61,059 nt of DNA from a virus. The stretch lies in IMG/VR virus record IMGVR_UViG_3300023247_000001, positions 1-61,059 of that record; one strand, 5' to 3'. A program made the position numbers and the translations under genes. The notes under the pieces were generated by a model. That model ran no database searches and was not told where the DNA came from. It saw nothing but the letters and a program-made list of their open reading frames with translations. Below, piece by piece: positions 9,662-61,059 of this stretch; positions within the stretch are counted from its first letter, which is position 1; each line of letters begins with the position of its first letter.

Positions 9662-9670
9662 GGATGGAGT

Positions 9671-9711: not shown

Positions 9712-9714
9712 GCT

Positions 9715-12591: not shown

Positions 12592-12656
12592 ACCAAAGCC
12601 CCAATCGATTTACGCTCCCCGTCGTTCAAAAGAACTCTGATGCAACGAAGGGGCTT
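12592..12656 (-). other. Intervening segment of the permuted pre-tmRNA
   Basis: 65 nt between the CCA end and the mature 5' end; its flanks (CCACCAAAGCCCC / GGGGCTTTGGTGG) extend the acceptor stem to about 18 bp. Confidence 0.6.
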
Positions 12657-12750
12657 TGGTGGACCCGGCGGGAGTCGAACCCGCGTCCGAAATCATCTTT
12701 CTACAGCGTTGACGTGCGTACTCTTGGGGCTTCACGGTGTTCTGTGGAGC
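12657..12750 (-). ncRNA. ssrA: tmRNA acceptor piece (5' boundary approximate)
   Basis: ...CTGTAGAAAGATGATTTCGGACGCGGGTTCGACTCCCGCCGGGTCCACCA: T-arm GCGGG/CCCGC, acceptor 3' strand CGGGTCC, discriminator A, encoded CCA ending at 12657. Confidence 0.8.
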
Positions 12751-12807
12751 GCCTCCACCATCACGTCAAAAGAGGACGTGAACTCAATGTTGATAAATGT
12801 ACCACGG

Positions 12808-13314: not shown

Positions 13315-13360
13315 GGTGGTCACCTCGGAGACATTGTAGGCGTTTTGGGTCCTGATGCAA

Positions 13361-24344: not shown

Positions 24345-24693
24345 GGATGTGATTGCAACCATCCAGCGGATCTCGGAGAGCCCCCGTCGTGACCGGGAAA
24401 CCGCGTGTCCTGACTTCGGTACGCTTTTGGTGGCCATCCGGTCCATCCGGCACCCGCAAAGGCACCTGAGAGGCATTGTGGCGAAACTGGCGCGCATCTT
24501 TGGCGTGACGGCCGATGAGGAACTGCTCTCGCTGTACGAGGAGCGCGCCGGACACAGGACAGATCAGGACATGGATACGGCTTATCGAGTTCTGAGCCAG
24601 GATGAAACGCTGAAGAGGATGCCCACGCCAGCGCAGTTCTTGGCCGCTTGCGGGGTTCCGAAGATCTACCGGGGCGGGACGAGGCCGGAATGA
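24172..24693 (+). CDS. Hypothetical replication-module protein (possible helicase loader/organizer)
   Basis: Frame of ORF 24133..24693; good third-position GC from about 24172; ATGA-coupled to the methyltransferase gene. Confidence 0.5.
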   Translation: MESRLVRKQTGQLMQSEPLSPKQQIIVALGTLALMRGGEYSQATLTAFSEGLSKEPFEDVIATIQRISESPRRDRETACPDFGTLLVAIRSIRHPQRHLRGIVAKLARIFGVTADEELLSLYEERAGHRTDQDMDTAYRVLSQDETLKRMPTPAQFLAACGVPKIYRGGTRPE

Positions 24694-26114
24694 GGTATCT
24701 CTCCCTGTTCAGCGGCCTTGAGGGTGCAACCCTTGCTTGGCATCATCTCGGAGAGTGCGCCGCAGTCTCTGAGATTGAACCGGCGGCGTGCGCGGTACTT
24801 GCTGCTCACTATCCCGATGTTCCGAACCTCGGCGACATATCCAAGGTCACAGAACAGCAGATTCAGGACCTCGGACACATCGACATAGTGGTGTTCGGAA
24901 GCCCATGCCAGGACGTATCAATCGCCGGCAAACGCGAAGGAATGGAAGGATCACGCAGTGGACTTTTCTTTACAGCAATGCGAGTTGTTCGGTGGTCAGG
25001 AGCAAGATTCGCTCTCTGGGAAAACGTCCCTGGAGTCTTCAGTGACCACAAAGGACGAGGCTTTGCTTCTGTGGTTGGAGAGATGGCAGGGGTACACGTT
25101 GACGTACCGAAAAGTGGATGGAGAAACTCCGGTTTTCTCCTCGGGACAGACGCCCTTGTCGAGTGGGCAGTTTTGGATGCGCAATTCTTCGGAGTTCCGC
25201 AGCGGCGCCGTCGCGTCTTCGCTCTCAGAGATTCTGGAGACTGGGCCAGTAGACCGCCGATACTTCTTGAGCCCGAAAGCCTGCAAGGGCATCCTGCGCC
25301 GCGCCGCGAATCGGGGCAAGTCGCTCCCACCATCCCTGCGCGAAGCCTTGGAGGCGGTGGCCTTGGATCAGACTTCGACTGCGACGGGGGGGCAATTAGC
25401 GTTGGATGGGGGGGCAATAACACATCAGGACCCATCGAAGTAGCAACTGCGTGCAATGCTCACGGCGGATCGGGACGCATGGATTTTGAGAGCGAAACAC
25501 TGGTGACCGCGCCGATTACTGGACGCCCTTATGCGGATCGTGGCGCGGAAGAATACGGCCTCATTGTTGGTGCATTGACTCAAGGTGCGCACCCCGGCGG
25601 TTATAACGGACAGGACGCATACTCTGGGCACCTTGTCACGCATTCTCTTTCCGCCGATGGCTTCGACGCCAGCGAGGATGGAACGGGGAGGGGAACGCCG
25701 CTTGTGCCTTGCTGCATAACCGGAGACAAGACGCACACTTTGGATTCGTTTAGCTCAGGAAGGGCGACAGAGGACTCAACAGGAAGAGGATGCCCTATTG
25801 TTGCTTTTGACTGCAAAGCATCAGGCCGCAATGGATTCGGAATTGGCGAACAGTCTCCCACTTTGCGCAGTATGGGCCACAAGGACACGCACCAGAACGC
25901 CGGCGGGCAGGTTGCCGTTCTTTCACGCATGGCTGTGCGCCGACTTACTCCGCGAGAGTGCGAAAGATTGCAGGGAGTCCCAGATGGATTTACTTTGGTA
26001 TCGCGCAATGGTAAGCCGATGGCAGACGGGCCGCGCTACAAGATGCTCGGGAACGGCTTCGCTGTGCCGGTTGTGCGGTGGATAGGCGAGAGACTCGCAA
26101 AGGCGGTCAAGTGA
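24690..26114 (+). CDS. DNA (cytosine-5) methyltransferase with long target-recognition region
   Basis: FSGLEG (motif I), GSPCQDVS (IV), ENVPG (VI), QRRRRVF (VIII), GNGFAVPV (X); about 240 aa between motifs VIII and IX. Confidence 0.9.
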   Translation: MRYLSLFSGLEGATLAWHHLGECAAVSEIEPAACAVLAAHYPDVPNLGDISKVTEQQIQDLGHIDIVVFGSPCQDVSIAGKREGMEGSRSGLFFTAMRVVRWSGARFALWENVPGVFSDHKGRGFASVVGEMAGVHVDVPKSGWRNSGFLLGTDALVEWAVLDAQFFGVPQRRRRVFALRDSGDWASRPPILLEPESLQGHPAPRRESGQVAPTIPARSLGGGGLGSDFDCDGGAISVGWGGNNTSGPIEVATACNAHGGSGRMDFESETLVTAPITGRPYADRGAEEYGLIVGALTQGAHPGGYNGQDAYSGHLVTHSLSADGFDASEDGTGRGTPLVPCCITGDKTHTLDSFSSGRATEDSTGRGCPIVAFDCKASGRNGFGIGEQSPTLRSMGHKDTHQNAGGQVAVLSRMAVRRLTPRECERLQGVPDGFTLVSRNGKPMADGPRYKMLGNGFAVPVVRWIGERLAKAVK

Positions 26115-27617: not shown

Positions 27618-27768
27618 TGCGGTAATGGACGCCTACGCTCAGCGTTACGAACTATCCGTGAAGCAAAAGACGCTTCTCAACCGCTACATAGTTCAAGTGT
27701 CACTCTGCCAGAGCGAGGAAGCGCGCCGATTGCTGTTAGGTGTAAGCCAGAAAGAAGTGGCGGCATGA
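27568..27768 (+). CDS. Hypothetical small basic protein
   Basis: 66 aa; GGAAAGGGAAAG upstream. Confidence 0.5.
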   Translation: MPIKRKPKTPGSGRPSDAVMDAYAQRYELSVKQKTLLNRYIVQVSLCQSEEARRLLLGVSQKEVAA

Positions 27769-28127
27769 TTCATCGCAGGACTCCACTGAAACGCTACACG
27801 CCAGTACGCAAAAAACGGCCAGGGATGCGCAAGGGGCAGCCGACTAGCGCAGAGAAGCAAGCGGCCAGGGTAATCTGCTACTCACGCGCCAATGGCATGT
27901 GTGAACTTCACAACGGGACTCACTGCCTTGGCTATGCCCCGCTCAACGCGCTGGACGACGAGGAACACCAAGGGCAACTGAGCCATCTCAAGCCAAAGCA
28001 ACGGTTCGGATGGTTCGAGTCAGAAGAGACGGGCCAGAAGCATCGCTGGAGTTGTTGGAGATGCCACCAGTTTGAACATCAGCACGGAAGTAAACCACAC
28101 ATCGAAAGGAAAGATCATGAACTATGA
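27765..28127 (+). CDS. HNH/NinG-like nuclease
   Basis: RRTPLKRYTPVRKKRP N-terminus; GMCELHNGTHC...SHLKPKQRFGW...CWRCHQFEH. Confidence 0.5.
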   Translation: MIHRRTPLKRYTPVRKKRPGMRKGQPTSAEKQAARVICYSRANGMCELHNGTHCLGYAPLNALDDEEHQGQLSHLKPKQRFGWFESEETGQKHRWSCWRCHQFEHQHGSKPHIERKDHEL

Positions 28128-29505
28128 AGAGTTTCTGGAGGCAAAGGCACAATACGGTGGAGATGCTGGATTCAAGGCTATCTCTATTCCCGATATGCTG
28201 TTCGACTTCCAAGGCGATACGGTTGAGAGGTCCCTGCGGAGAGGGCGCTCGTCTATCTTCTTCGATTGCGGACTTGGCAAGACTCCGATGGAATTGGCCT
28301 GGGCCGACAACGTGGTCCGCCACACAAATAAGAAAGTTCTGTACATCACTCCGCTAGGCGTGGCCAAGCAAACCATTCGAGAGTCTGAGAAGTTCGGCAT
28401 CGAAGCGCACCGTTCAAATGATGGGCAGCTTGTCTCTGGAATCAACGTCACCAACTACGAGAAACTCCACCGCTTCAATCCGAACGACTTCGCCGGCGCG
28501 GTGTGCGATGAGTCATCATTCATCAAGGCCATGAACGGCAAGCGGCGCGCACAGGTTACGGAGTTTCTGCGCACGCTACCTTTCCGCCTGCTGGCCACGG
28601 CAACAGCCGCCCCCAACGACTACGTCGAACTTGGAACATCCTCCGAAGCCTTGGGCGTGATGGGTCAGATTGACATGCTCAATCGCTTCTTCAAGAACGA
28701 CCAAAACACCAGCGACACACGCATGATGATTCGACGCGCGCCAAACCAAGGCGGTCCAGTTAGCGCAGGATGGCGATTCAAGGGACACGCCGAGGAACCG
28801 TTCTGGCGTTGGGTTTGCTCATGGGCACGAGCAGCACGCCGCCCTTCTGATGTTGGTCCATACTCCGATGCTCGCTTTGTATTGCCGCGACTCATTGAGC
28901 GCGAGCATATTATAGAAACGCGCACGCTCCCCGATGGTATGCTCTTTCCGCTGGCAGCAACCAACATGCAAGAGGAGCGCGAAGAACGGCGCCGAACCGT
29001 GCAGGAACGTTGCGAGATGGCTGCCTCTTTGGTGTCTGGGACCGGAAAGCCTTTCGTGATTTGGTGCCAGTTGAATCCTGAAGGCGACCTTCTTGAGCAT
29101 CTTGTTCCCGATGCCGTTCAGGTTTCAGGGTCAGACAGCGACGAAGAGAAGGAAGAGAAATACGAAGCCTTCGCAAGCGGTCAGGCCCGCGGTATCGTCA
29201 CAAAGCAGGTCATCGGTGGGTGGGGATTGAACTGGCAGCATTGCGCTCACGTGGTAGAGTTTGCGACGCATAGCTTTGAGCAGCACTATCAGGGTGTTCG
29301 CCGCTGCTGGCGTTTTGGACAAACGCATGATGTAATCAACGACCTAATTGCGACTGAAGGCCAACGCGGCATCAAAGAGAACTTGCGGCGCAAGCAGGTT
29401 GCCGCAGACAAGATGTTTGACGAACTGGTACGCCACATGAACGAGTCAGTCCGCATCGAAGGCGGATACAAATTCGAGAAAGAGGTAACAACGCCATGCT
29501 GGTAA
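28117..29505 (+). CDS. SNF2-family helicase
   Basis: DCGLGKT (motif I), DESS (II), LATATAAPN (III), QGVRRCWRFGQ (VI). Confidence 0.85.
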   Translation: MNYEEFLEAKAQYGGDAGFKAISIPDMLFDFQGDTVERSLRRGRSSIFFDCGLGKTPMELAWADNVVRHTNKKVLYITPLGVAKQTIRESEKFGIEAHRSNDGQLVSGINVTNYEKLHRFNPNDFAGAVCDESSFIKAMNGKRRAQVTEFLRTLPFRLLATATAAPNDYVELGTSSEALGVMGQIDMLNRFFKNDQNTSDTRMMIRRAPNQGGPVSAGWRFKGHAEEPFWRWVCSWARAARRPSDVGPYSDARFVLPRLIEREHIIETRTLPDGMLFPLAATNMQEEREERRRTVQERCEMAASLVSGTGKPFVIWCQLNPEGDLLEHLVPDAVQVSGSDSDEEKEEKYEAFASGQARGIVTKQVIGGWGLNWQHCAHVVEFATHSFEQHYQGVRRCWRFGQTHDVINDLIATEGQRGIKENLRRKQVAADKMFDELVRHMNESVRIEGGYKFEKEVTTPCW

Positions 29506-30578
29506 TCGATCAGAAAATCACAGACAAGTACGCCATCTACAACGGCGATTCAGTAGACATGCTCACCGCCTTGAAGGATGAGTCGATCCATTTTTCCGTC
29601 TACTCTCCGCCTTTTGCAACAGAGAATGGAGGAGCACTTTACCACTACAGTTCCTCTGATCGCGACCTTTCCAACTCTCGTACCTATGAGGAGTTTTTCT
29701 CTCACTACGAGTTCATCGTGCGAGAGATTCACCGGGCCACATTGCCAGGACGCATGACCGCTGTGCATTGCATGGATGTACCAAACAGCAACAGCGGAAA
29801 CGGAGACTCCTACACCGACTTCCCCGGCGACATTATCCGGTTGCATGAGCGGTGCGGATGGAGAATGGCCTCTCCTCGCATCTCGATTTGGAAGGAGCCG
29901 CTTGCTGTACGCAACAGGACTATGACGAAAGCTTTGGCCCATAAGTCGATTGTGGAAGACTCTTGCAACTGCGCAGTCGCCGGGGCCGACTATCTCCTGA
30001 TCTTTCGGCGCTCAGGGAAGAACGAAATTCCCGTCACTCACCGTCATGGGCTTATCAACTATGCCGGGACACGCAAGGTTCCAAAAGAGTTGCTCAAGTA
30101 CAAGGGGTGGACTGGAAACCAGATTGAGAATCGGTATTCGCAATGGATTTGGAGACAGTACGCTTCGAGTATGTGGGACGACATTCGCGGCAACATGGGC
30201 GACCGCAAAGAGAAAGGCGTCTTGCCCTACCGTGAGGCCCGCGAAGAGGAAGACGAGAAACATTTGCATCCCCTTCAGTTGGATGTCATCACGCGCTCCG
30301 TGGAGCTATGGTCGAACCCAAGCGAAACGGTTCTCACTCCATTCATGGGCGTTGGTAGCGAAGTTTGCGCCTCACTAATGAGCGGTCGCCGGGCGATTGG
30401 ATGCGAACTCAAGCCGAGCTACTACCGACAAGCCGTGCGCAATGTAGAGGAGGTAGAAAAGAACGGTTGGCACGACGACAGCGGCCAAGAGATGCTTTCA
30501 TTCCGTGAAGAGTTTGACGCGGTTGATCCTGAAGTCCAAGACGGGCCGATGGAAGATCCAAAAGAAATGGACTTCTAA
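29496..30578 (+). CDS. DNA methyltransferase, beta-class N4-C/N6-A (SPPF type)
   Basis: SVYSPPFATE (motif IV) precedes TPFMGVGSE (motif I); overlaps the end of the SNF2 gene. Confidence 0.8.
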   Translation: MLVIDQKITDKYAIYNGDSVDMLTALKDESIHFSVYSPPFATENGGALYHYSSSDRDLSNSRTYEEFFSHYEFIVREIHRATLPGRMTAVHCMDVPNSNSGNGDSYTDFPGDIIRLHERCGWRMASPRISIWKEPLAVRNRTMTKALAHKSIVEDSCNCAVAGADYLLIFRRSGKNEIPVTHRHGLINYAGTRKVPKELLKYKGWTGNQIENRYSQWIWRQYASSMWDDIRGNMGDRKEKGVLPYREAREEEDEKHLHPLQLDVITRSVELWSNPSETVLTPFMGVGSEVCASLMSGRRAIGCELKPSYYRQAVRNVEEVEKNGWHDDSGQEMLSFREEFDAVDPEVQDGPMEDPKEMDF

Positions 30579-30584
30579 CCCAAC

Positions 30585-30617
30585 ACCCCGCAGGACTCAA
30601 TCGAGCTTCTGCGGGGT
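30585..30617. other. 9-bp hairpin between the convergent arms
   Basis: ACCCCGCAG-15 nt-CTGCGGGGT; no U-run; overlaps the 3' end of the 1012-aa gene. Confidence 0.4.
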
Positions 30618-33600
30618 TACGTCCTTCTCCCAATCGAACTTCGCTGGCATTAGAATTCCCTGCTCCGTCCCACCCTCATGCTTTGTGAACGTTATGATTC
30701 GTCCTTTGCTTCCCGGCTTCAACTGTCCATAGGCCCCCAGCAGATTCCCGGTAATGATCTTCGCGCGCTGCCGAGTGTCGCTGAGATAGTCCTGAAACAA
30801 CTCGGCAATATCAGCATTGCGGCCAAGATTCGCCAGCGTGATCTTCTTGATTTGCGAACCTGGTACGCGCACCTCGCGCAAAGGTCCGTTGACGGCAATG
30901 TAGAACTTCAGAGAGCTGGGAGCGTATGGATTGCCGCTTACCTTCTTGCGACCGCGAATATCGTAGATAACGCCGTTGTAAGTGTCGCCGTTGATTTCGA
31001 TTCTGAGTCCTGATCCCACTCGAAAGTCGTTTAGAATCGTCCGCGACCATTCCCTAATGCGCTCGGCCCGTTCGATGATGTGTGGCGCTTCAACGGATGC
31101 GATGTATGGCTTGAACAAGCCCTCAAGGTGTGCGCTCAAGGCCCGCGCGTGGTACGTGTCCCGCTGCCATGGCTCGTACTTCATGAGGTCAGGACCATAA
31201 GTCTGTGCGATCAGTTCGGATACCTCCTCCGGTGTATAAGACTTTCCTTGCCGCTTGATTGAGTATGTCCCGAAGGTGGCGTCTTCCCCGAACGGCGATG
31301 AAGGATCAGACCCAACGTAGATGACGTGCGAGGTCTTCTGCTCTGCGTCGAAGTCGTAGGTCTTGGGCTCAAGGTCATTCTGCCCTGTCTCATCAAGATA
31401 CGCGATGTAGTCCGTGTAGCTCTCGGTGATCGTCTCCATAAACTCTCGCTGCTCTTTGACGGGCAAGAGTGCTGAGCGTCCTGTTGCCGTGCGTGCCAGG
31501 TCTTCCTCTGGAGTTCCGCCTTCCTCCTCCGACTTGTCCATCGTCAGGCCCATGAGACGGGCAATCTGCTCATTCTCGTGCAGCCACTCCGCGACGATCT
31601 TGTCGCCGTACTTGTTCATCATGTCTGGCGCCTCAATCGACATTGCCGACCGCGTGTTGCTCGACGTGTTGGCGTTCAGGCTCTTCAGTTTCTTGGCGAG
31701 GCTGATGGCCGGGCGAATCTCTGCGGGGATGGCCAGGGAGAGCATCGTGTACCTTGGCAGGACCATCTGGCCGGTCCTGTTCGAACGTCCGAGGATCTGC
31801 ATGAACACGTTCACGTCGCCGGCCGGTTGAGCAACGATCATGTGCCGCTGATGTTGGTCTTTGAACTTCTCGGAAGCGTGGAGACTGATTCCTGTCGAGC
31901 CCGCCTGGTTCAGAACCAAACAATCGACGCCGCCATTATTGAACAGGCTGCCGGTCTGCACGCGGTCCTTCCGCTCGCTGGCCGGGACTGAAGACAGGAC
32001 AGGGACGGGACCCGCATAGTTGATTCGATACGAGCGTCCGGTAATCTCTGCCACGGTAAAGCCGGCTTGCGTGATTCGAGTCCTGATCCAATCGATAGGC
32101 GACACCGGCAGCGTTACCGCAAGAGCGTCCAGAAGCCTCTCAGCTTCCCGGTACTTTGCTTCCGTCTCGACGTAGAGCAGATGGCGCGGGAACTCTTGGC
32201 GGTCATTGCCCATTGAGGTCTTGATGGTGTAGTGAAGGGTCCTGTCGAGGGCACGCCTGAGTATGGTGGACCATGAGAGCTTATCAAGCACTTCGCCCTC
32301 GCTCAAGTTCGCCGCACTCACATAGCTGTCGAGGAACGCGCCCATAGTGCTCTCAAGGGCGACAATTGGCTTTTCCCCGCGTCCGAGCGCTTCGATGGCG
32401 CAATCTGCTGCGGCATCCGACTTCAAGGCCAGGAGAAACTGCTTCACGATGTTGTGGACGATGGCGCTGAACTTGTGATGGTAGATCTTGATGTGCCGCT
32501 TCTTGTACTGGAGGCGCAGAGTCTCGAAATCGTTCTGATGATAGTCCTGATCTGCTTTGAAGATGGCCCGCAAGACTTCCGTCACCTGATCACATATATC
32601 CTCTTGTGTGTCCTGATTTCTGTCGTCAATGAAGTTCAGGATGCTGATGCCCTCAAAGGACCGCTCACGGCGCACGAGTTGGCCGGTCTGGGCGAGTTGG
32701 TGGCTCACGACGGTCTGTAGTGGTGGACCACCGGCGCGGATGGCGTCAGAGACACGCTGGTTGTCGGGAATGGCAATCGAGATGTCCGTCTTGGTGGCGT
32801 AGAGCGTCATGTTGTCCGGCCGCTTCGCCCACGTTGCCGACAGGAACATCACGCCGTGCGCCGCTGGAAGAACCTCTTGGAAGAACGCTCCTGTGTTCGA
32901 CTCATCGCCGCCGGCGTTGTGGGACTCGTCAAGGATGAAGACGGCTTTCGGCGCCAACCGTCTCAGTGCCTCCTGCTGGATGTTGATCGTATTGATCTGC
33001 GAATAGGTCAAGTACACGGCATTCCGCGCGCGCGGCAGTTCGCCAGTCTCGGCAATCCTTGTCAGGACCCCCTTCATGCTGCTCTTGTTGGCGAAGATTT
33101 TGCGTCCTGTTGCCTGCTCAGTTATCGACGCCCCGGCATTGAAGAGCAGAGGCCAGACGCTTGGACCGAAGCCGATGTCGTCAAGATCGCGTTGGAAGTC
33201 GGTGAAGAGGGTATCCGAGTAGGTGACGAAGATCGGCAACAGACCGTGAAGAATGGTCCACCGGCAGACAGCCGCCGCTACCCTACCCTTTCCAACTCCG
33301 GTCTGATCCGCGCACACCAGCGCCCTTTGCTTCCTGATCTGCCAGATGGCCAGGGCAATCGAATCAACCTGGAGGCCCATGAAGTAGCTCTGCATCTCCT
33401 TGACGGAGGGGTACTCCAGTTCGCGGGCCACGAACTCGTCCAAGTCGCCACCCTCAGCCCGGACGCGCTCCATAGCCACCCGCATCGGCTCTTTCATTGA
33501 TCGCGGGCACATCACTGCTTCATCTTGGAGGCTGGAAAGTGAGGCGTAGACCTCTTGATAAGCGTTCATATTCTCGACAGGACGCTGAATCCGAGTCCTG

Positions 33601-33635
33601 CGGTTGAGTAGCAATAGTCTGGTTGATAAGTCCAT
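30597..33635 (-). CDS. Strawberry-notch-like (SNO/SBNO) superfamily-2 helicase
   Basis: ADQTGVGKGR P-loop, FILDESHNAGG, LSATWAKRPDNM, NQAGSTGISLHA, QILGRSNRTGQ, C-terminal ITGNLLGA; the start could instead be the internal MNAYQ. Confidence 0.7.
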   Translation of the reverse strand: MDLSTRLLLLNRRTRIQRPVENMNAYQEVYASLSSLQDEAVMCPRSMKEPMRVAMERVRAEGGDLDEFVARELEYPSVKEMQSYFMGLQVDSIALAIWQIRKQRALVCADQTGVGKGRVAAAVCRWTILHGLLPIFVTYSDTLFTDFQRDLDDIGFGPSVWPLLFNAGASITEQATGRKIFANKSSMKGVLTRIAETGELPRARNAVYLTYSQINTINIQQEALRRLAPKAVFILDESHNAGGDESNTGAFFQEVLPAAHGVMFLSATWAKRPDNMTLYATKTDISIAIPDNQRVSDAIRAGGPPLQTVVSHQLAQTGQLVRRERSFEGISILNFIDDRNQDTQEDICDQVTEVLRAIFKADQDYHQNDFETLRLQYKKRHIKIYHHKFSAIVHNIVKQFLLALKSDAAADCAIEALGRGEKPIVALESTMGAFLDSYVSAANLSEGEVLDKLSWSTILRRALDRTLHYTIKTSMGNDRQEFPRHLLYVETEAKYREAERLLDALAVTLPVSPIDWIRTRITQAGFTVAEITGRSYRINYAGPVPVLSSVPASERKDRVQTGSLFNNGGVDCLVLNQAGSTGISLHASEKFKDQHQRHMIVAQPAGDVNVFMQILGRSNRTGQMVLPRYTMLSLAIPAEIRPAISLAKKLKSLNANTSSNTRSAMSIEAPDMMNKYGDKIVAEWLHENEQIARLMGLTMDKSEEEGGTPEEDLARTATGRSALLPVKEQREFMETITESYTDYIAYLDETGQNDLEPKTYDFDAEQKTSHVIYVGSDPSSPFGEDATFGTYSIKRQGKSYTPEEVSELIAQTYGPDLMKYEPWQRDTYHARALSAHLEGLFKPYIASVEAPHIIERAERIREWSRTILNDFRVGSGLRIEINGDTYNGVIYDIRGRKKVSGNPYAPSSLKFYIAVNGPLREVRVPGSQIKKITLANLGRNADIAELFQDYLSDTRQRAKIITGNLLGAYGQLKPGSKGRIITFTKHEGGTEQGILMPAKFDWEKDVTPQKLD

Positions 33636-36377: not shown

Positions 36378-37427
36378 TTACCAGCCTATTGCATACCAGT
36401 CCCAAGTCTCGCCGCTTGGCTCTGGGTTGACGGTGAACGTGCTGAGTGCCGTACAAGTGGCGGCGGCCGAAGCCGCAGACTGACCGCTCGATATTCTTGG
36501 GCCGCTATCGTTGGCGACAATCTTGCACTGCGAGGTCATGGCGATGGGAAGGTTCTGAGTGCATGGGGTGGTAGAGGTTGTGCAACTGATGGTTCCCCAT
36601 TCTTCTATCGTCCCATCTCCGAATTTTATGTAGCACCCATTGGCATTGCATGTGCGCGTCGTTCCGTTTCCAGACACAGCAGAGACTCTACCTTGGGCGT
36701 CTGTGGTGATCGATGAGGGGTTGGTCACCGTGCCGGCCGTGCCAGTGTTCGGAAGTCCAACGTTAGTCTTTCCAGTCCCGTTGCTGCCTACCACCGTTCC
36801 GTCGAAGTTTAAGATTGGCTGCTGGGCGAGCGCCGATCCGTTCTCCTGCACTGTTTGATAGTAGATGGTTGCGGGCGTGGGAAGCGCATTGCATAGAGCG
36901 TTTCCGTTGGATGCGATACCGTAGGCGAAGTATGATGCTGGGTTGCATGCTGTCGGAGTGGATGCAAGGGCATTCGCCGTACTTGAGTTGCCGGTCAGTG
37001 GGCCGATGAAGCCGGATGTGTCAGTGAGCGCGCCGGACATTATTCCACCTTTGGACCAGTCGTCTACCAGCGCAAGGTCATTGACGAAATATGTCCCATA
37101 GGACGATGAAATCAGGACCCCATAATGCCCCACGTGAGCGCAGAAGTAGTAGTTTCCGCCGGCATCGGCCGTGAATGGGTTTGTAGGGGTTGCCGTGCTG
37201 AGGGCTGTTGTGGTGTAGATGTTAACTTTGTTCGCCACGCAATTGGCCGCTGTCGATCCCGACGAGCAGAGCGCCACGGTCGCGTAGGGAATCGGAGCAA
37301 TGACGCCGTTTGAGATGGTCTGTGCGACATTGTTCAGGCAAACTCCGATGGGAGCCTGGGCAATGGCAAAGGCCGCGCACAGCCAGAGAGCAGTGAGGGC
37401 GATGATGCGCTTTACTGTTCGATTCAC
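36378..37427 (-). CDS. Tail-fibre-like protein with N-terminal Sec-type signal peptide
   Basis: MNRTVKRIIALTALWLCAAFAIAQA; GGIMSGALT collar-type motif; C-terminal GDGTIEEWG...WYAIGW fibre-tip-like block. Confidence 0.55.
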   Translation of the reverse strand: MNRTVKRIIALTALWLCAAFAIAQAPIGVCLNNVAQTISNGVIAPIPYATVALCSSGSTAANCVANKVNIYTTTALSTATPTNPFTADAGGNYYFCAHVGHYGVLISSSYGTYFVNDLALVDDWSKGGIMSGALTDTSGFIGPLTGNSSTANALASTPTACNPASYFAYGIASNGNALCNALPTPATIYYQTVQENGSALAQQPILNFDGTVVGSNGTGKTNVGLPNTGTAGTVTNPSSITTDAQGRVSAVSGNGTTRTCNANGCYIKFGDGTIEEWGTISCTTSTTPCTQNLPIAMTSQCKIVANDSGPRISSGQSAASAAATCTALSTFTVNPEPSGETWDWYAIGW

Positions 37428-37708
37428 AGGGCCTCCGGAGACTTCACCAACTGTGGGCCAGCAACTGCGGCCTCTTGCTGTTTCGAGTCCTGATTCGGTG
37501 CCTGCTGTTCAATCCTTCCAACGATCTGCGTCGAGATGATCTTCCGGCACTCTGGGTTACCGCAGAAGATGATGGTGCCAATCATGCCGCCAGGAAAGAT
37601 CTGGTTCATGATCGAGAGTCGGGCCGGATCGTCTGCACAATACGGGCAGGCTGGCAGCATAACAGGGGTCACAATAGCGGTTTCGTTCGGTTCAATCTTC
37701 GTTTCCAT
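37424..37708 (-). CDS. Small Cys4 protein, first gene of the third late operon
   Basis: METKIEPN...CPYC...CGNPEC; GGAGGG RBS; GTGA-coupled to the fibre gene. Confidence 0.55.
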   Translation of the reverse strand: METKIEPNETAIVTPVMLPACPYCADDPARLSIMNQIFPGGMIGTIIFCGNPECRKIISTQIVGRIEQQAPNQDSKQQEAAVAGPQLVKSPEAL

Positions 37709-37803
37709 CGGTGTTCCCTCCAAAGCGAAAGACTCGCCACTGAGCCTCTTATCAAGGTCCCGTGGCGAGTCAGACTGGTTCTGTACCCGTCAAAGCGATT
37801 GTA
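37709..37803 (-). promoter_or_regulatory. Late leader cassette B
   Basis: Minus strand TACAAT (37798-37803), GACGGGTACAG (37781-37791), perfect 10-bp stem GACTCGCCAC/GTGGCGAGTC (37731-37740 with 37762-37771), then TTTCGCTTT and GGAGGG. Confidence 0.6.
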
Positions 37804-37810
37804 CCGCACC

Positions 37811-38947
37811 CTAGTAGCGGTAAAAGGCCAGATGCGTGGCCGTGGGCGGCGGGGCGATGGTGTAGGTGATTGTTGCACCGCTCAATGTGAAGTCAACCCC
37901 TCCCGGCTTCAGGACTTGCCATCCGCGGTAAAGCCGAAGACTGGCGGCGGGATTCGGGGCTTGCGGCAACGTAAAGACTTTGTTGGTCCCGTTCAGCGTT
38001 CCGGTCGGGGTAATCCAATCCGCAAAGTTTGGTTCAGTTCCGCTTCCGGCGTAGGTTCCCCAAGCGAGAAAAGATGCGCTGCCAATCGGCACAGAGGGGA
38101 TGATCGTGTTTCCATCGAGGATGTAGTAATCTTCTCCCGATTCAGAGAACACCGAATCGAGCAAGCACCGTGCCGGCTTGAAGAAGTTGATGATCGTAGC
38201 CATGTAGCTGAGTTGATCTGGAGACGCGCCAAAATTCTGAAACATCCCATTGCGGTAGAGTTCAATGGAAATCGGGGCGTCTGGCAGTACCAGATTCGAC
38301 CCTGAGATGGTCGGCACTACGGCATCGAAGTAGAGTGGCGTCCCGTCCGTGGCCTTGCGCATCAGGACACACAACGAAGAATTCAACGTGGGGGCAAAGG
38401 ACATGGCGAGTACCGTCCCGGCCGATGTGTAGTCAACTCCTGGACGCTGCAAGAGTCCGTTGTAGAAGACGCGGAGAGAACCGCCCACCGGAATTGAAGG
38501 GAGACTGAATACGCGGTTGCTTCCATCGATTACTCCGATGGGTGATTGCCCTGACCCACTCACTCCGACGCGAAATACAGCCCATCCTTGATTAGCGGGG
38601 TAAGCAGACCCTCCCCACGATGCCTGCCCCTCATAGCAGGTTGCAGTGAAGCCACAAAGCCCAAGTGCTTGGACAATAGCTCCCGGTGTGCCCATGATCT
38701 TGTGGAGTGGCAGCGCGTTCTGGATGATGGTCTGTGAGGTAACGCCCAACGCCTGCATCGGGACGCTGGGAATCATCATGTCGAGTTCCCATATCAAGTA
38801 GGGGAGGATGGACGCGGGGAGATTGCTGCCTAGCGTCCTGATAAGCAAAGGCGTGAGGTCGATGGACTCAAGGCGCGCAGAGAGTTGCATGTGGGCTTGG
38901 GTGCGGAGGTCATTGATAGATGATGCGGGCCTGAGATTGTTTGCCAT
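37811..38947 (-). CDS. Baseplate/tail protein, P2 gpI-like
   Basis: N-terminus SIDLTPLLIRTLGSNLPASILPYLIWELDM...HKIMGTPGAIVQAL fits the tail protein I family. Confidence 0.65.
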   Translation of the reverse strand: MANNLRPASSINDLRTQAHMQLSARLESIDLTPLLIRTLGSNLPASILPYLIWELDMMIPSVPMQALGVTSQTIIQNALPLHKIMGTPGAIVQALGLCGFTATCYEGQASWGGSAYPANQGWAVFRVGVSGSGQSPIGVIDGSNRVFSLPSIPVGGSLRVFYNGLLQRPGVDYTSAGTVLAMSFAPTLNSSLCVLMRKATDGTPLYFDAVVPTISGSNLVLPDAPISIELYRNGMFQNFGASPDQLSYMATIINFFKPARCLLDSVFSESGEDYYILDGNTIIPSVPIGSASFLAWGTYAGSGTEPNFADWITPTGTLNGTNKVFTLPQAPNPAASLRLYRGWQVLKPGGVDFTLSGATITYTIAPPPTATHLAFYRY

Positions 38948-49936: not shown

Positions 49937-52246
49937 TTATGCGGTCACGTTGAAGTTGCTGGTTGTGCTGGTGCTCGTTACGGATGCCCCGAGGTTCGCA
50001 AGCAGGCTGGTGTTGATGGAGAAGTTGTAAATGATCTGCTCGGCCGGCGGCGGCGGCATCACGCTTACTTCAAACGTGAGTTGCCCATTCGCCAGACTCG
50101 CAGGGGGGTTGTCAACCGGGTTGTAGGTGACCGTGCTTCCAGCAATCAATGCGCCCTGCTGAATCAGCGAGTTGATAAAGGCGTTCACGCTCTGCAAGAT
50201 CGAATTGATGAGGCCGTTGGTGATGGGCTTGTCGGCAAAGGGGAGCGAACTGTACTGGATGCTCTGCTCCACAACGTCGAGGGTCCTGCGAACGGCGATA
50301 AACGTGGTCACTGCGCCGCTCGACGGGAAGCTAGATGCCCGGTTGCCCCAGGTCCTGTATCCAGTCCCGAAGCCGTTGAATACCGTCATGATGCCGGCCG
50401 CGTTCAGCGCGTTCGTGTCCGAAGTCGGATCGTAGGCGCTCATGTAGAGACTGACATCAGGACCCAGAATCCCGTTGATGATAGTGTTCGACGGCGAGAA
50501 CCAGAAGCCATTGGCGATGTCGTTGGCTGCTGTAGCTCCGGCAACCCAAGTGCTGTACGGCGTGTCCACTGTGCCGGTAACGTTCGTGTATCCGATGGTC
50601 CCTTGTGCGCTCACCGTGACTCCGGTGGGGCTGATGGTGGTGGGCGTCTTCAACTGCCATGGGAAAGTGAGGGCGAGCCGGTCGCTGGCCTGATTGAAGG
50701 CATTTCCGGCGGCGCCACGGTTGGCGATAGCGGTTGCCACGGTCGTGTTCGGCGGCGCGTCGGTGAACGAGATGGCCCGGAGCTTCGTCGCCATGGCCAG
50801 CAGATTGGCGCTGGTCGACGCATCGTAGAAGGTTGGGGTGATGAGCAGTTTGGCGAACAGTCCCATCGTCTGGAATGTGGTCTGCAAGGCTTGGATGCCG
50901 GTGTAGGTGCTTCCGGTCACGGTCCCGATGATGTCGGTGTAGGCAACCTTGGACGGGTCGCAGTAGGCACCGGAGACCTGCAATGCCTGCGCTGAGGTGA
51001 TTGCGCCGCCGCTCTTGGTGTAGAGCAGGCCGTTCACGTAGTCGATGGTGTAGTCGGTGTTCTCGACGTAGGTCGTCGATCCGGCCTGGTTCTTTACCAC
51101 GACGGTGGTAGGCGGTCCAGCGAAGGTCACGTTGAAGGTGGCGCCGGTGCCACTTCCCGAGGTGCTGGCCTGAGATACAGGATTCGACGGCGTGGCCGAG
51201 TAGCTGCCGGCCGTCGTGATATTCGCAGTATTCACACCAAAGACGCCAAGGTTGAAGGTTGCCCCGGTTCCGAGTCCTGTTGAGCTTGCCTGTGTCAGTG
51301 CCGCGCTGTTCACCGTGAAGACGCCAGCATTGACGATGCTGAAGGTGGCCACGCCCAGGGTAATTGCCAGTTCGGCGCCAACCAGTCCAGCACCCGTTAC
51401 CGGCTCAAGAGTTGGCGCGGTAGGGTTGACCGTGTAGGAGCCCGCCAAGGTGATGGACAGTACCGCGGTAATCGCGCCGCTGGCCACCGTCACAGATGCC
51501 TGGAAGCGTGTCCCGGTTCCAGTCGTACCCGTGACGGTCTGAGTCCCGTTGGTGCCGCCGCTTCCGCCCGCCGCCACAGTGGCCGCTGTGACCTGCGTCG
51601 ATGTCACTGTGAGTTGCGGCGCAACTGAGGACGTGCCACCAGTGAGCGTAACGCTGTCACCTGCTGCGTAGTTGTGCGATGTAGCGCCGCCGGGGGCATT
51701 CACCGCCAGAGACACGAGCTTTGTCGTGGCCACCGTCAGGACAGCAGAGACGGAAGCGGTTCCACCAGCCAAGGTGATCGTGTCGGCTGTTGCATAGCTG
51801 TGGCTTGCCGCGCCGCCCGCCTGCGCCACGGTGTCAACCGAAGCGGTAGAAAGGGGAGTGTTGGGCAAGCCTGGACCAATTAGGCCCATGTGACCGAGTG
51901 TTACCGGCACACTGTTGGATGCGGGTCCTGTCAAGGGATTGGTCGCAAAGGTGCTTTGATGCAGGAGCGGGTTGAACACGTCGATGACGATGACGGCACC
52001 CGCGCCCTGGAGTTGAATGTCCGCAAGAGCTTCAGGAATCGTGTAGCCGGCAATCTGTTTACCGAAGTTCGACCCCTGCGCGGCGGACTGAATGAGCGTC
52101 GGGACATTGATTCCGGGTCCTGCTCCAGACGATGCCGACCACTGCGGAGCCGAGCCGATGAGGCCAATAACTGCCGAGTTGACCACCTGAATGGATACGC
52201 CGTTAGTGTTGACCTCGGTTACCGTGATGCCATGGAAGAAAGCCAT
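49937..52246 (-). CDS. Tail sheath protein with ~240-aa repeat insertion
   Basis: MAFFHGITVTEV...IGLIGSAP sheath N-terminus; ATG at 52246 with AAAGGAG; 769 aa. Confidence 0.75.
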   Translation of the reverse strand: MAFFHGITVTEVNTNGVSIQVVNSAVIGLIGSAPQWSASSGAGPGINVPTLIQSAAQGSNFGKQIAGYTIPEALADIQLQGAGAVIVIDVFNPLLHQSTFATNPLTGPASNSVPVTLGHMGLIGPGLPNTPLSTASVDTVAQAGGAASHSYATADTITLAGGTASVSAVLTVATTKLVSLAVNAPGGATSHNYAAGDSVTLTGGTSSVAPQLTVTSTQVTAATVAAGGSGGTNGTQTVTGTTGTGTRFQASVTVASGAITAVLSITLAGSYTVNPTAPTLEPVTGAGLVGAELAITLGVATFSIVNAGVFTVNSAALTQASSTGLGTGATFNLGVFGVNTANITTAGSYSATPSNPVSQASTSGSGTGATFNVTFAGPPTTVVVKNQAGSTTYVENTDYTIDYVNGLLYTKSGGAITSAQALQVSGAYCDPSKVAYTDIIGTVTGSTYTGIQALQTTFQTMGLFAKLLITPTFYDASTSANLLAMATKLRAISFTDAPPNTTVATAIANRGAAGNAFNQASDRLALTFPWQLKTPTTISPTGVTVSAQGTIGYTNVTGTVDTPYSTWVAGATAANDIANGFWFSPSNTIINGILGPDVSLYMSAYDPTSDTNALNAAGIMTVFNGFGTGYRTWGNRASSFPSSGAVTTFIAVRRTLDVVEQSIQYSSLPFADKPITNGLINSILQSVNAFINSLIQQGALIAGSTVTYNPVDNPPASLANGQLTFEVSVMPPPPAEQIIYNFSINTSLLANLGASVTSTSTTSNFNVTA

Positions 52247-52356
52247 TTTCTCCGCTCCTTTGCCGCCAAACGTGAAAAAGCCGGGACGAATCCGGCTTAT
52301 CAAGCCTTCTCCATCCCGGCCAGGTTGTTCCTGTACCGTCGATACAAAGTGTATCA
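52247..52356 (-). promoter_or_regulatory. Late leader cassette C, upstream of the sheath/tail operon
   Basis: Minus strand TGATACACT (52348-52356), GACGGTACAG (52331-52340), stem GCCGGGATG/CGTCCCGGC (52280-52288 with 52312-52320), TTTTT (52275-52279), then AAAGGAG. Confidence 0.6.
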
Positions 52357-52361
52357 GGTTG

Positions 52362-52970
52362 CTACTCTGATGGGACGATGACCTTATCTCCGCTCGGAGT
52401 AACGTTGAAAATCGCTTGCTGCAAGTTCGCCAGCGCGTAAGAGGGCAACAGCCGCGGGCGAATGGTGAGGACGTTGAAAGTCAGATCGTAAAGCCAGACG
52501 CGCCCTTGTGGGTCCTGTTCCGAGAATCTTTCCTCAGTGAAGTAGGCGTGACGGCATCCGGTAGGCTGGAATCCACCCAGCGCTGATTCAATCGCATCGA
52601 TGAGAGCATAGACTGAGCCGGCCCCACTGAGGTTCCACGCCGTCTTGCGCGCCTCGACATGGACCTTGAATTGAAGAGTGCGCTCCTGGACCATGCTCGA
52701 CGTTGCAAGCGGTTTCGAGAGTCCCGTGTTGCTGTAGGAGATCAGGACAAAAGCTATCGCCGATGATGCCCACCACGTATCAAGGTCAAATGCCGGGTAG
52801 ATGTAGACCGGGATCGCCAGGGAACCGGAAGCAAAGAACGCCACAAGTTGCGCGGCAATCTGGTTCTGAATTGAGTCCACGGTAAGGGACGCGGGGGGCG
52901 TGTTGGTCCTGCCGCCCCATGCCGTCGGGTCGATCTGTACCGGGAGCGCGCCATAGGTGGGGTCGCTCAT
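52362..52970 (-). CDS. Hypothetical protein (tail completion/terminator by position)
   Basis: 202-aa ORF immediately upstream of the sheath leader. Confidence 0.5.
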   Translation of the reverse strand: MSDPTYGALPVQIDPTAWGGRTNTPPASLTVDSIQNQIAAQLVAFFASGSLAIPVYIYPAFDLDTWWASSAIAFVLISYSNTGLSKPLATSSMVQERTLQFKVHVEARKTAWNLSGAGSVYALIDAIESALGGFQPTGCRHAYFTEERFSEQDPQGRVWLYDLTFNVLTIRPRLLPSYALANLQQAIFNVTPSGDKVIVPSE

Positions 52971-59326: not shown

Positions 59327-60964
59327 CTAGTTGCCGCCCAGGTCAATCTTGAAGTTGGGGTCGTTGATCGACTTCGCAAACCCGCTGCCAGGGGTGCACA
59401 TCAGACCGAAAGCGCGCGCCGTGGCCTGCTCAGAGCTGCGCTGGTCGTTCGGATCAGCTTCGGAGAGCGATTTGTTGATCATCCGGTTGAAGTCAGCCTT
59501 GCCGTCGCTGGCCGGGAACACATCCCCGGTAGAGTTGGCAACGAACAGCTTCGGGCGGCGGCCGGCGGAGGGCTGATTCTCGATCACGGACATCTGACCC
59601 TTCAGGAAAGCGTTGTCGGCAATCAGCGGGGCGGTAGCTTCGGCCACAGCGGCCTTGACCATCGTCGCAATTGCAGCCGCAGAATAAGGCGAGTCGCCAG
59701 CGCCGCGGAAGGTGTTGCCCTCCACTTCGCCTTCAGTCATGCGCCGCGTGGAAAGCTCTTCGACGTTCTCCGAATGAGGCTTCTCGCCCAAGTCGGTTTC
59801 CGCCTTCTCGCCATCCCAGCCAGTCATGGCCTTGCCGAGCGCAGCGTGAGCCAGTTCGTGATGGTCGGCAATGTCGTTCATGTGTCCCGAAAGCGCCGTG
59901 AGGTGCTTCTTGAACTCATCGCCGCCGTCGGCCGCCTTGCCCATGCACTTGTGAAGAGCCTCAAGTTCATCGACCGCCTTGCCGTGGGAGGCCGAAGCCT
60001 TCTTGATGTGGTCATCGGCCTTCTTGATGGCCGCCTTTTTCCCTGCCGTGAACCGCTTCTGGAGGTCAGTATCCATGATGGTGCTCTCCTTTTGCTTTGT
60101 GCTGCCCGGCCAATCGGCGGGTAGAAGGTGGGTTGCGTTCAGCGCTTTCGCGCGTGTGACGATGTGAGCCTTGGCTTTCTCGGGGTCCGATGCGCGGCCA
60201 AAGGCTTGGACGGCGTTCTCAAGATCCTTCACGGTCTGGACAGGGAAAGAACCGTCGGGAAGCGCTACCCCAGTGCTACCGAGGTGCTTGCGTTCCTTTT
60301 CGCTGAACTCCCGCTTCTCAAGGTCAACGCCGTCCGCAAACTTGGCGGTCAGAGTGGCCATCTCATCGGCGGTCAGTTCCTCGGACTCAACAGGACTCAG
60401 ATTCGTGTCCTGTGCGGCTTTGGCAAGGTCCGGGAGTGCAATCTTCCCCATCCCGAGAATCGTCCGGAACGTGTCAAGCGCCTTTTCCATCAAAGTCTCG
60501 TTACTGGTTTGATTCTCCATCGACCCTCCAAAGGCGAGCCCACCGGCAATCTTCACGATGTCAATGCGACAATCGGAGTTCGCCGGCCGGTCAACGAGGC
60601 TGATCTCTCGCAAGGAAAGCGCCTTGACCACATCGCCAACCTTCTCCAGTTTGGAACCGCCGATACTGAATCCCTTGTAGACGCCTTCCTTGCACAGCTT
60701 CCACGCAGCGGGATCAACGATCTTGGCTCCGATGTACAGCCCTTTGGCGTCAATGTGGGCCTCTTTGGTCACGCCAACGGCATTGTTGGTGTGCATGGTC
60801 CTGATGTTCGCCCACTTCATGTAGTCGGGGAGGGCGGCCTTGATGGCGTCCAGCGGAACAATCTCCCCTTGCAGGTCCTTCGATGGCGTTGAGGCATAGC
60901 CCCAGACCATTCCGCTCTGCGCGTCCACCTTCTCAATCGGGAGAAATACGCTGAAATCGTCCAT
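59327..60964 (-). CDS. Prohead protease (HK97/S78-like) fused to a scaffold-like C-terminal region
   Basis: N-terminal ~140 aa ending REISLVDRPANSDCRI; long helical Lys/Glu/Ala-rich remainder. Confidence 0.7.
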   Translation of the reverse strand: MDDFSVFLPIEKVDAQSGMVWGYASTPSKDLQGEIVPLDAIKAALPDYMKWANIRTMHTNNAVGVTKEAHIDAKGLYIGAKIVDPAAWKLCKEGVYKGFSIGGSKLEKVGDVVKALSLREISLVDRPANSDCRIDIVKIAGGLAFGGSMENQTSNETLMEKALDTFRTILGMGKIALPDLAKAAQDTNLSPVESEELTADEMATLTAKFADGVDLEKREFSEKERKHLGSTGVALPDGSFPVQTVKDLENAVQAFGRASDPEKAKAHIVTRAKALNATHLLPADWPGSTKQKESTIMDTDLQKRFTAGKKAAIKKADDHIKKASASHGKAVDELEALHKCMGKAADGGDEFKKHLTALSGHMNDIADHHELAHAALGKAMTGWDGEKAETDLGEKPHSENVEELSTRRMTEGEVEGNTFRGAGDSPYSAAAIATMVKAAVAEATAPLIADNAFLKGQMSVIENQPSAGRRPKLFVANSTGDVFPASDGKADFNRMINKSLSEADPNDQRSSEQATARAFGLMCTPGSGFAKSINDPNFKIDLGGN

Positions 60965-61059
60965 CTGGCTCCTGTAAACGCAAAAAGGCCCGGACGATTG
61001 AGCTTTGATAAGCCGTCACGTCCGAGCCAGATTGTTTCTGTACCCGTCGATTGAGATAT
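60933..61059. repeat. Terminal direct repeat copy 2 (circular assembly overlap)
   Basis: Identical to nt 1-127; contains the first 32 nt of the protease gene plus its leader. Confidence 0.95.

Follow-up and report, generated by a model that had tools for sequence, protein, structure and literature searches.

What could a phage gain from a promoter that runs at once into a terminator, when the genes behind it are those that it expresses most? This question is raised by the window analyzed here, the whole stretch of 61,059 nucleotides of viral DNA. Since bases 1–127 repeat at 60933–61059, the window represents a closed circle of phage DNA of ~60.9 kb, and the phage is known from metagenomes alone. 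The timing of late genes by antitermination is textbook knowledge for lambdoid phages, yet beyond them it is understood in very few phage groups. The head and tail modules of the present phage are Mu/P2-like (a Mu F-like protein, P2-type tail proteins), and its nearest isolates are BcepMu and P2-like phages, with a sheath ~40% identical. No DNA-level match was found in ~50,000 deposited phage genomes, and a host search in genome contigs returned two distant MAG matches only.

Replication and DNA-modification genes occupy the plus strand from 13.9 to 30.6 kb. On the minus strand, a Dps-like gene, a two-piece tmRNA, the small and large terminase subunits, the portal, the Mu-F-like protein, and small ORFs run from 13.5 kb down to 0.2 kb. 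Three paralogous minus-strand cassettes, at ~30–134 (A), 37706–37803 (B), and 52244–52356 (C), stand one at each late-module boundary. On the same strand, cassette A is followed by the prohead protease/scaffold, capsid, and head-completion genes (60964 down to 52362), cassette C by sheath, tube, tape measure, baseplate, and fibre genes (52246 down to 37811), and cassette B by a 94-aa zinc-ribbon protein, a second fibre-like protein (fibre-2), four unknown ORFs, and a Strawberry-notch-type helicase (37708 down to 30597). The genes that flank the cassettes are as follows.

ATG at 30–32, ORF continuing at 59327–60964 on the circular contig, minus strand: prohead protease/scaffold gene behind cassette A, with weak Peptidase_S78 matches below the Pfam cut-off
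49937–52246, minus strand: tail sheath gene, first of the operon behind cassette C
52362–52970: Gp37-like head-tail gene upstream of cassette C (Pfam Gp37 on the L208 homologue)
37424–37708, minus strand: 94-aa Cys4 zinc-ribbon protein, C-x2-C-x24-C-x4-C, first gene after cassette B
37811–38947: tail-fibre/P2-I-like gene upstream of cassette B

Every cassette is built in the same order, from a promoter through a 5′ box, a small hairpin (P1), a terminator hairpin (P2), and a U-run to GGAG and ATG. This anatomy, which is established with high confidence, is laid out below.

Cassette A
124–134 (hexamer 124–129), minus strand: extended −10 TGTGG-TAATAT, no −35
109–120, minus strand: 5′ single-stranded box AATCGACGGGTA
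96–108, minus strand: P1, CAGA-AACAA-TCTG
87–95 and 56–64, minus strand: P2 arms, with apex GCTT-ATCA-AAGC at 70–81; ΔG −26.6 kcal/mol, z −3.3; covariation
50–54, minus strand: U-run
37–40 and 30–32, minus strand: GGAG and ATG
60933–61059, minus strand: terminal repeat of bases 1–127, equal to the first 98 bases of cassette A and cut off inside the −10 hexamer
Cassette B
37798–37803, minus strand: −10 hexamer TACAAT, 7 nt past the stop of the tail-fibre/P2-I-like gene
37784–37794, minus strand: 5′ box TTTGACGGGTA
37771–37783, minus strand: P1, CAGA-ACCAG-TCTG
37762–37770 and 37732–37740, minus strand: P2 arms, with apex CCTTGATAAGAGG at 37745–37757; ΔG −33 kcal/mol, z −4.3
37721–37730, minus strand: U-run TTTCGCTTTG, weak and interrupted
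37706–37708, minus strand: ATG
Cassette C
52348–52356, minus strand: extended −10 TG-A-TACACT, 9 nt past the stop of the Gp37-like gene
52334–52343, minus strand: 5′ box ATCGACGGTA
52321–52333, minus strand: P1, CAGG-AACAA-CCTG
52312–52320 and 52280–52288, minus strand: P2 arms, with apex GGCTT-GAT-AAGCC at 52294–52306; ΔG −32.3 kcal/mol, z −4.6; covariation
52275–52279, minus strand: U-run
52244–52246, minus strand: ATG

An earlier note on this DNA had described three such paralogues on the minus strand before the late operons, and all of them were recovered where it had placed them, with the parts that it had named: the −10-like hexamers TAATAT (A), TACAAT (B), and TACACT (C), two of them preceded by TGn (in A and C), and a T-run, GGAG, and ATG after the stem. 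Its further copy of A at 60965–61059 does correspond to a repeat, but this is the same locus on a circular contig. Other details had to be redrawn. The gap between the −10 hexamer and the following box, given as 6–7 nt, is 4 nt. The proposed “GACGGGTACAG(A/G)AAC box” is present as sequence but is a composite of the single-stranded segment WTYGACGG(G)TA and the 5′ arm of P1 (C-A-G-R). Finally, what had been drawn as a 9–10 bp stem topped by a mini-hairpin is one extended hairpin of ~20 bp, P2.

The number of copies also held. A covariance model built from eight alleles and run on the whole window with filters off scored the three cassettes at 56–89 bits (E 1e-12 to 5e-21), and no fourth copy was found on either strand. 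Since the next full-length candidate has an E of ~1, the cassettes are exactly three; the intermediate matches are partial and represent the reverse strand of the P2 hairpins themselves and nothing else.

Promoter activity of the cassettes is predicted from what occupies one position in many lineages. The window copies have a −10 hexamer and no −35 in any of them. At the cassette A promoter position, lineages D, E, and I carry TTGACA/TTGACT-N17/18-TAnnnT, and the −35/−10 promoters of distant loci read TTGACA-N18-TAGGGT (L120), TTGACT-N17-TAATCT (L189), and TTGACA-N17-TAACCT (L247). At the same position, an extended −10 is found in lineages G and H (TGTGATATATT or TGTGTTATATT) and in lineage F (CGTGATATATT), the loci being L244, L246, and L209, and the extended −10 types of distant lineages follow a TGTGnTATATT pattern. 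TACAAT is also retained in the distant B-type leaders L210 and L211. In distant leaders P1 starts 14–17 nt past the hexamer, the same distance as in the window. Because independent lineages have arrived in different ways at a good match to the sigma-70 consensus in this one place, the site would be hard to explain as anything but a promoter. Upstream of about −20, nothing is common to A, B, and C, and the A alleles occur in at least five different upstream contexts, which makes it unlikely that an activator like C of Mu or Ogr of P2 has a site upstream. The packaging/accessory unit that lies upstream of cassette A ends at an intrinsic terminator.

167–193, minus strand: intrinsic terminator ending the upstream packaging/accessory unit, 10-bp stem with 7 GC pairs, then TCTTTTTG

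A separate terminator just upstream of the promoter is also present in the distant lineages L245 and L246. Since the upstream unit has a terminator of its own, P2 would act on the transcripts of the cassette itself rather than serve as a mere end of the upstream operon.

P2 is a GC-rich hairpin directly followed by a U-run, which by sequence is the make-up of an intrinsic terminator, and termination at P2 is therefore predicted. It is a single extended hairpin of ~20 bp, with 20–22 near-perfect pairs in some alleles, a ΔG of −27 to −39 kcal/mol, and z of −3.3 to −6.7. The U-run is U5 in A and U4–5 in C, and in B it is interrupted and weaker (UUUCGCUUU), so not all copies need be tight terminators. 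As the earlier note had it, the stems covary: the lower stem of P2 is 95% paired, with double changes in 8 of 9 pairs, in arms that were picked by hand for this count and with covariation being expected of any terminator. The apex motif CTTGATAAG/CTTATCAAG is kept among the paralogues and in L189 and L211, and a 19-nt apex segment of the P2 of cassette B occurs in both orientations, at comparable frequency, among related loci. The U-run is separated from the ATG by only ~10–30 nt, and GGAG lies inside this interval. There is no room for another promoter before the ATG, and because the interval is this short, all late-gene transcripts must cross P2.

P1 is a 4-bp hairpin with an A-N-C-A-N loop, and it directly abuts P2 with no spacer. 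It emerged from the alleles of the C orthologues and of A and B, which identify the 3′ half of the “GACGGGTACAG box”, C-A-G-R, as its 5′ arm. In the C orthologues of close relatives, the promoter, the 5′ box, and everything past the U-run are kept, and P1 and P2 are wholly replaced with their structure retained. Thus, after ATCGACGG(G)TA, cassette C of the window reads CAGG-AACAA-CCTG, and its orthologues read CTCA-AGCAC-TGAG (L001), CTTG-AGCAC-CAAG (L004), and CCAA-AGCAC-TTGG (L015); a second A allele has CAAA-AGCAC-TTTG. Within the clade, P1 and P2 together behave as a replaceable module between fixed flanks. Covariation was assessed on 12 pentaloop alleles from the clade of the window and from lineages whose protease is 48–55% identical. 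All 48 cells are Watson-Crick pairs, with no G-U, and double changes occur in all four pairs. None of 500 shuffles reached the observed pairing or covariation score, and shifting the 3′ partner by one column lowers the pairing to 33–54%. In the loop, A1 and C3 are invariant and A4 is present in 11 of the 12 alleles, and the base 5′ of the stem is always A, a pattern typical of a hairpin that is read by a protein. P1 is thermodynamically marginal, and single-sequence MFE folding often leaves it out. Two distant alleles have tetraloops (ACAA, AAAC), one of them on a 3-bp stem. Ahead of P1, the 5′ segment WUYGACGG(G)UA is single-stranded, with ~8–11 unpaired nt, and in distant lineages its conservation is only loose (GUAAGGAGUA, UUUCGUCAGCA).

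Neither the 5′ box nor the P1 loop was found to pair in a conserved way with other parts of the leader. An antiterminator pairing between the 5′ box and the 3′ arm of P2 was rejected, as it amounts to 4 nt (GACG/CGTC) in A and C only and is missing from B, and a kissing interaction of the P1 loop with the P2 apex or the downstream region was set aside for want of consistent complementarity. A simple alternative-structure attenuator is excluded because P1 and P2 overlap by at most one or two bases.

The distant loci, fetched via the protease, the sheath, and two small proteins, carry leaders that are all orthologous by position: each stands immediately ahead of the protease gene or of the zinc-ribbon/fibre-2 pair. 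Their 5′ flank and P1, written as flank, arm, loop, and arm where the flank is given, are as follows.

L120 leader: GGAGTA-TCCG-AACAA-CGGA, then two tandem terminators
L209 leader: ...CAGCA-CAGG-AACAA-CCTG
L246 leader: ...CAGCA-CAGG-AACAA-CCTG
L247 leader: ...AGGTA-CTGA-AGCTC-TCAG
L210 leader: ...GACTA-CTGA-ATCAA-TCAG
L211 leader: ...GAGCA-CAGA-ACCAA-TCTG
L189 leader: CTG-ACAA-CAG, a tetraloop on a 3-bp stem
L244 leader: TCTG-AAAC-CAGA, a tetraloop

The layout of promoter, leader, terminator, and late genes is common to the three window copies and seven other lineages. In distant lineages the cassette stands once, ahead of the protease gene, and lineage F has a B-type cassette in addition; there are also lineages, such as L253, with a plain terminator in place of a P1-type leader. 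No cassette was found within 10 kb before the sheath gene in the distant lineages, from which it follows that cassette C is a recent duplication in the clade of the window. When ~1.5 Mb of related loci and the distant loci with 10 kb to either side were searched with a structural descriptor for further cassettes or cassette types, essentially the known orthologues only came back; the few extra matches are without promoter context. Rfam at gathering threshold found only the tmRNA in the whole window, and permissive Rfam scans of cassettes A and C gave nothing near the threshold of any family. Literature searches for a matching element yielded nothing relevant beyond general work on antitermination.

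Considering these elements together, it is proposed, at about even chances, that each cassette is the leader of a late unit and acts as a promoter-proximal attenuator that a putative trans-acting factor relieves. Host sigma-70 RNA polymerase would start at the extended −10 promoter and transcribe the ~8–11 unpaired nt of WUYGACGG(G)UA, then the 4-bp P1 with its A-N-C-A-N loop and the invariant A on its 5′ flank, and then, without a spacer, the GC-rich ~20-bp P2 and the U-run. By default the transcript would end at ~70–75 nt, leaving the protease/capsid, sheath/tail, and fibre-2 blocks silent. Late in infection the factor, most likely a phage protein, would recognise the nascent 5′ segment and P1, and would either travel with the polymerase, processively like lambda N from boxB, or block the nucleation of the adjacent P2, with read-through as the outcome. 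Such a factor and its nature are deduced from the arrangement: because a dedicated promoter meets a terminator at once, before the most highly expressed genes of the phage, read-through is probably regulated, and the two tandem terminators of L120-type leaders point to a tight default-off state. The signal that survives divergence is a base-paired element with sequence-constrained loop positions. A protein that reads the nascent RNA, in the way that N reads boxB, would account for it; less likely, the non-template strand would be recognised within a paused bubble, in the manner of RfaH at ops. A duplex-DNA site does not fit such a signal.

The earlier note had likened the cassettes to lambdoid PR′-qut-tR′ control by a Q-type antiterminator. 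The layout does resemble this system, in which the late genes are directly preceded by a promoter whose short leader transcript is cut short by an intrinsic terminator as long as no phage factor has modified the polymerase, and it is kept down to 48–55% protease identity. The Q specifics found no support, however. Q reads duplex DNA and needs a sigma-dependent pause, whereas the cassettes have a covarying hairpin, and a −10-like pause (TAnnnT) is not conserved, AACAAT in A being ACCAGT, AACAAC, or AGCACT in other alleles. There are also three cassettes per genome as opposed to one, and the lambda PR′ leader measures 194 nt as against ~70 nt here. The note had recognised no Q-like gene, and none of the ~60 ORFs matches a Q family. 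The signal is closer to nut/boxB than to qut. Like the N-nut system of lambda and P22, it would combine a small nascent-RNA hairpin of 4–5 bp and a five-base loop with conserved positions, a short conserved single-stranded segment on the 5′ side, and terminators downstream that are to be read through. The P22 boxB loop, GACAA, comes nearest to that of P1. Unlike boxB, however, the loop is A-N-C-A-N and not of the G-N-R-N-A type, and unlike nut, the element stands at late operons, 8–11 nt from the start site and touching the terminator, with no arginine-rich N-like protein found. WUYGACGG(G)UA bears no likeness to the boxA consensus, and this segment also varies in distant lineages.

The cis-acting antiterminator RNAs put (HK022), EAR (B. 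subtilis), and canT (Tn916) are much larger than the non-terminator part of the cassette, which is ~21–25 nt. They also act without a regulator, whereas the immediate terminator of the cassette implies regulation. In these cases a structured RNA lies between the promoter and the terminators of the long operons of a mobile element (PMC11658703). A different likeness is to the late promoters of Mu (Plys, PI, PP, and Pmom, with the activator C) and P2 (with Ogr), which are separate promoters that occupy the same boundaries between modules, one of them immediately ahead of the protease/scaffold gene. The Mu and P2 late promoters, at their module-boundary positions, have a −10 without a −35 and depend on an activator site upstream of the −10. 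The cassettes, in contrast, have no conserved upstream site, and no Mor/C or Ogr_Delta protein was found in the window; terminators in the leader are not known from the late promoters of either Mu or P2. Phage T7 repeats a promoter and a long near-perfect 5′-leader hairpin, an RNase III site, before its late blocks. The cassettes share with T7 this repetition of promoter and long leader hairpin before late gene blocks. T7, however, uses its own polymerase and hairpins without a U-run, whereas the cassettes have sigma-70-type promoters and a hairpin that, with its U-run, forms a terminator. The cassettes thus fail on what defines each known type, as no Q gene or conserved pause element, no boxA or N, and no activator site or Mor- or Ogr-type protein was found. 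The cassette type is absent from Rfam and has no equivalent in the literature searches.

Several other explanations bear on the same data. The late blocks could be served by internal promoters, leaky attenuators, and processing or stability hairpins with no dedicated antiterminator, so that partial read-through sets the module ratio and P2 is an RNase III site or a 5′ stabiliser. The length of P2, far beyond what termination requires with its 20–22 near-perfect pairs in some alleles, the kept apex motif, and the weak U-run of cassette B would all suit this arrangement, which we still consider unlikely: a strong hairpin with U4–5 past a dedicated promoter would waste most initiations on the most-needed genes, the tandem terminators of the L120 type point the other way, and the conserved P1 loop and its flanking A are left unexplained. 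Distinctly unlikely is a lambda-Q-type mechanism, in which a DNA-binding antiterminator would recognise the duplex near the promoter (e.g., ATCGACGGGTAC) and load onto a promoter-proximal paused polymerase, which then ignores P2. It would draw on the PR′-tR′ layout, on the +1 to +10 segment, which is near-identical among A, B, and C, and on a conserved phage protein with a confident C-terminal helix-turn-helix (3244–3873). A reader of duplex DNA, however, would not tolerate that the element conserved across lineages is a covarying hairpin; the initial transcribed region has no conserved sigma-dependent pause element, no Q-family domain was found in the ~60 ORFs, the position equivalent to that of Q upstream is a slot for accessory genes, and a search of the 10 kb that precede the L120-type cassette did not find the helix-turn-helix protein.

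Very unlikely, in turn, is a factor-independent antiterminator RNA of the HK022 put or Tn916 canT kind, in which the 5′ box and P1, possibly with P2, would make the polymerase resistant to termination. Such cis-acting elements exist (PMC11658703), a structured RNA does lie directly past the promoter and ahead of long operons, and the search for a protein factor found none. Yet the non-terminator part is only ~21–25 nt with a 4-bp helix, and if the element always worked, the terminator right behind it would be purposeless. Least probable is that the terminated leaders of ~70 nt are three paralogous small RNAs whose conserved 5′ seed (AUCGACGGGUA) pairs with host or phage targets, the position before late operons being secondary. 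A conserved 5′ end, covarying stems, and a hairpin with a U-tail are the usual make-up of trans-acting small RNAs, and there are three paralogues per genome. However, no good complementary site was found in the phage, the best being an 11-mer within a gene that has a single mismatch; the seed is poorly kept in distant lineages, where P1 and the position before the protease gene are conserved; and the late genes must still be transcribed through P2.

The cassette is a compact, sequence-defined element of ~95 nt with strong comparative support, whose natural alleles amount to ready-made compensatory mutants. Should the proposed attenuator be confirmed, the few known antitermination mechanisms would be joined by one with a new RNA signal and probably a new protein, the starts of late operons could be annotated by it across a large group of soil phages that are uncultivated, and a small portable off/on transcription module would become available.

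The trans-acting factor that this proposal calls for was sought in the window. Among the ~60 ORFs, Pfam and PHROG searches found no Q, N, NusG/RfaH/LoaP, sigma, RNA polymerase, Mor/C, or Ogr domain, many small ORFs being unassignable, and relaxing the cut-off to an E of 10 brought up no Mor or Ogr_Delta match. When all ORFs were scanned for stretches rich in R/K, TerS and a 120-aa Cys/His-rich early protein (27765–28127) alone came up, the latter without a family match, and no small protein with an arginine-rich N terminus stands out. The gene upstream of cassette A was considered as a Q analogue and rejected, as its slot holds interchangeable accessory genes: in the window a CxxCxxCC protein (PF03692) that is present in some relatives only, and in other relatives a 187-aa zinc-ribbon protein, an HNH/AP2 endonuclease, or a gene-free insert. 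A 118-aa protein (1955–2311) lies upstream of the cassette in six lineages and is missing on the contig of one close relative; it has nine homologues only and no family or PDB match, and its AlphaFold model (pLDDT 54) is too poor for a fold search.

Two further conserved small proteins are, with this one, leads for the factor. The 209-aa protein at 3244–3873 consists of a conserved N domain, a hypervariable linker, and the C-terminal helix-turn-helix, and it is present in the clade of the window and in lineages E, F, G, and H; it was not recovered near the L120-type cassette. Only its C-terminal three-helix domain is modelled with confidence, the model as a whole being too poor for a fold search, and no PDB or Pfam match was found. 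The 94-aa zinc-ribbon protein likewise has no Pfam, PHROG, or PDB match and is a speculative candidate. A possible but doubtful extension of the proposal is that uncultivated Mu/P2-like myoviruses of peat and soil possess an undescribed antitermination system, in which a minimal hairpin (4 bp, A-N-C-A-N, 5′ A) is fused to its terminator and would be recognised by a phage protein that has no relation to N, Q, or the NusG paralogues, the candidates being the 94-aa Cys4 protein behind cassette B, the leakiest copy, with positive feedback, or the helix-turn-helix protein. A positive-feedback loop via the 94-aa protein is conceivable because cassette B has the weakest U-run. The Cys4 spacing recalls that of Ogr, a likeness that is a lead at most, and the Ogr sequence set beside it in an alignment carries no weight. 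At every locus examined, including the distant L210, the 94-aa protein is the first gene behind the B-type leader.

In cassette B, the minus-strand leader before the zinc-ribbon/fibre-2 genes, the terminator hairpin P2 carries the 19-nt apical segment GGACCTTGATAAGAGGCTC, within window 37741-37761 (-), and its exact reverse complement, GAGCCTCTTATCAAGGTCC, is found in many relatives, among them L037, L038, and L045. Across the related loci examined, redundant ones included, one orientation occurs 26 times and the other 32 times; therefore, the segment between the P2 stem arms flips. Cassettes A, B, and C and the leaders of L189 and L211, two loci from distant lineages, share the apex motif CTTGATAAG/CTTATCAAG.

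The slot directly upstream of cassette A, the leader before the protease/capsid genes, is a hotspot for accessory genes and holds the following:
Window 133-637, minus strand: CxxCxxCC (PF03692) protein gene, which has a terminator of its own
L119 5324-5887, and also in L190: gene for a 187-aa zinc-ribbon protein
L209 4804-5322: HNH/AP2-type endonuclease gene
L208 10670-11240: stretch of ~600 nt that lacks called genes and Rfam matches
The 187-aa zinc-ribbon protein shows 72% identity between lineages in which the protease is only 55% identical.

A similar layout occurs in L321 (IMGVR_UViG_3300037308_000134), an AT-rich 103-kb phage unrelated to the window phage, in which an apparent sigma-70 promoter (TTGACA, then the -10 hexamer TATACT) is followed by a hairpin and then a terminator ahead of the protease gene. 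This element lies ~100-140 nt upstream of locus position 10001. The promoter-leader-terminator layout ahead of head genes may occur more widely than the motif of P1, the 4-bp hairpin of the cassettes.

The window phage also encodes a tmRNA:
12378-12773, minus strand: complete two-piece (permuted) tmRNA gene (RF04321, 87.7 bits; alpha_tmRNA, 50.6 bits)
12353-12376: terminator after the tmRNA gene
The gene is flanked by a Dps/ferritin-like gene (12808-13323) on one side and the terminase genes on the other. Its presence is a hint that the host, too, has a two-piece tmRNA; given the groups that carry one, such a host would most likely be an alphaproteobacterium. The tmRNA segment UUUCGACGGGAUCAG (12562-12576, -) resembles AAUCGACGGGUACAG of cassette A (106-120, -), which comprises the 5′ box and the start of P1, with UCGACGGG identical between the two. 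Since distant lineages do not keep the box, this likeness is probably due to chance, yet it remains an oddity in a phage with its own tmRNA.

Further genes of the window include:
30597-33635, minus strand: Strawberry-notch-type helicase gene (1012 aa), the last of the operon behind cassette B
3244-3873, minus strand: gene for a 209-aa protein
9317-9727, minus strand: gene for an Arc-like ribbon-helix-helix protein (weak PHROG matches)
Three modification-type genes (15071-15841, 24648-26114, and 29496-30578, +) encode PAPS-reductase-like, C5 cytosine methylase, and N6/N4 methylase proteins; together with the helicase gene, they make up a heavy load of DNA-modification and defence-evasion genes. 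The family of the 209-aa protein is restricted to this phage group, its members (177-269 aa) having a conserved 75-aa N domain that ends in CPGF, a hypervariable linker made of swapped modules, and a conserved C-terminal helix-turn-helix. The Arc-like protein gene sits between the portal gene and that for the large terminase subunit, an unusual site for a DNA-binding regulator.
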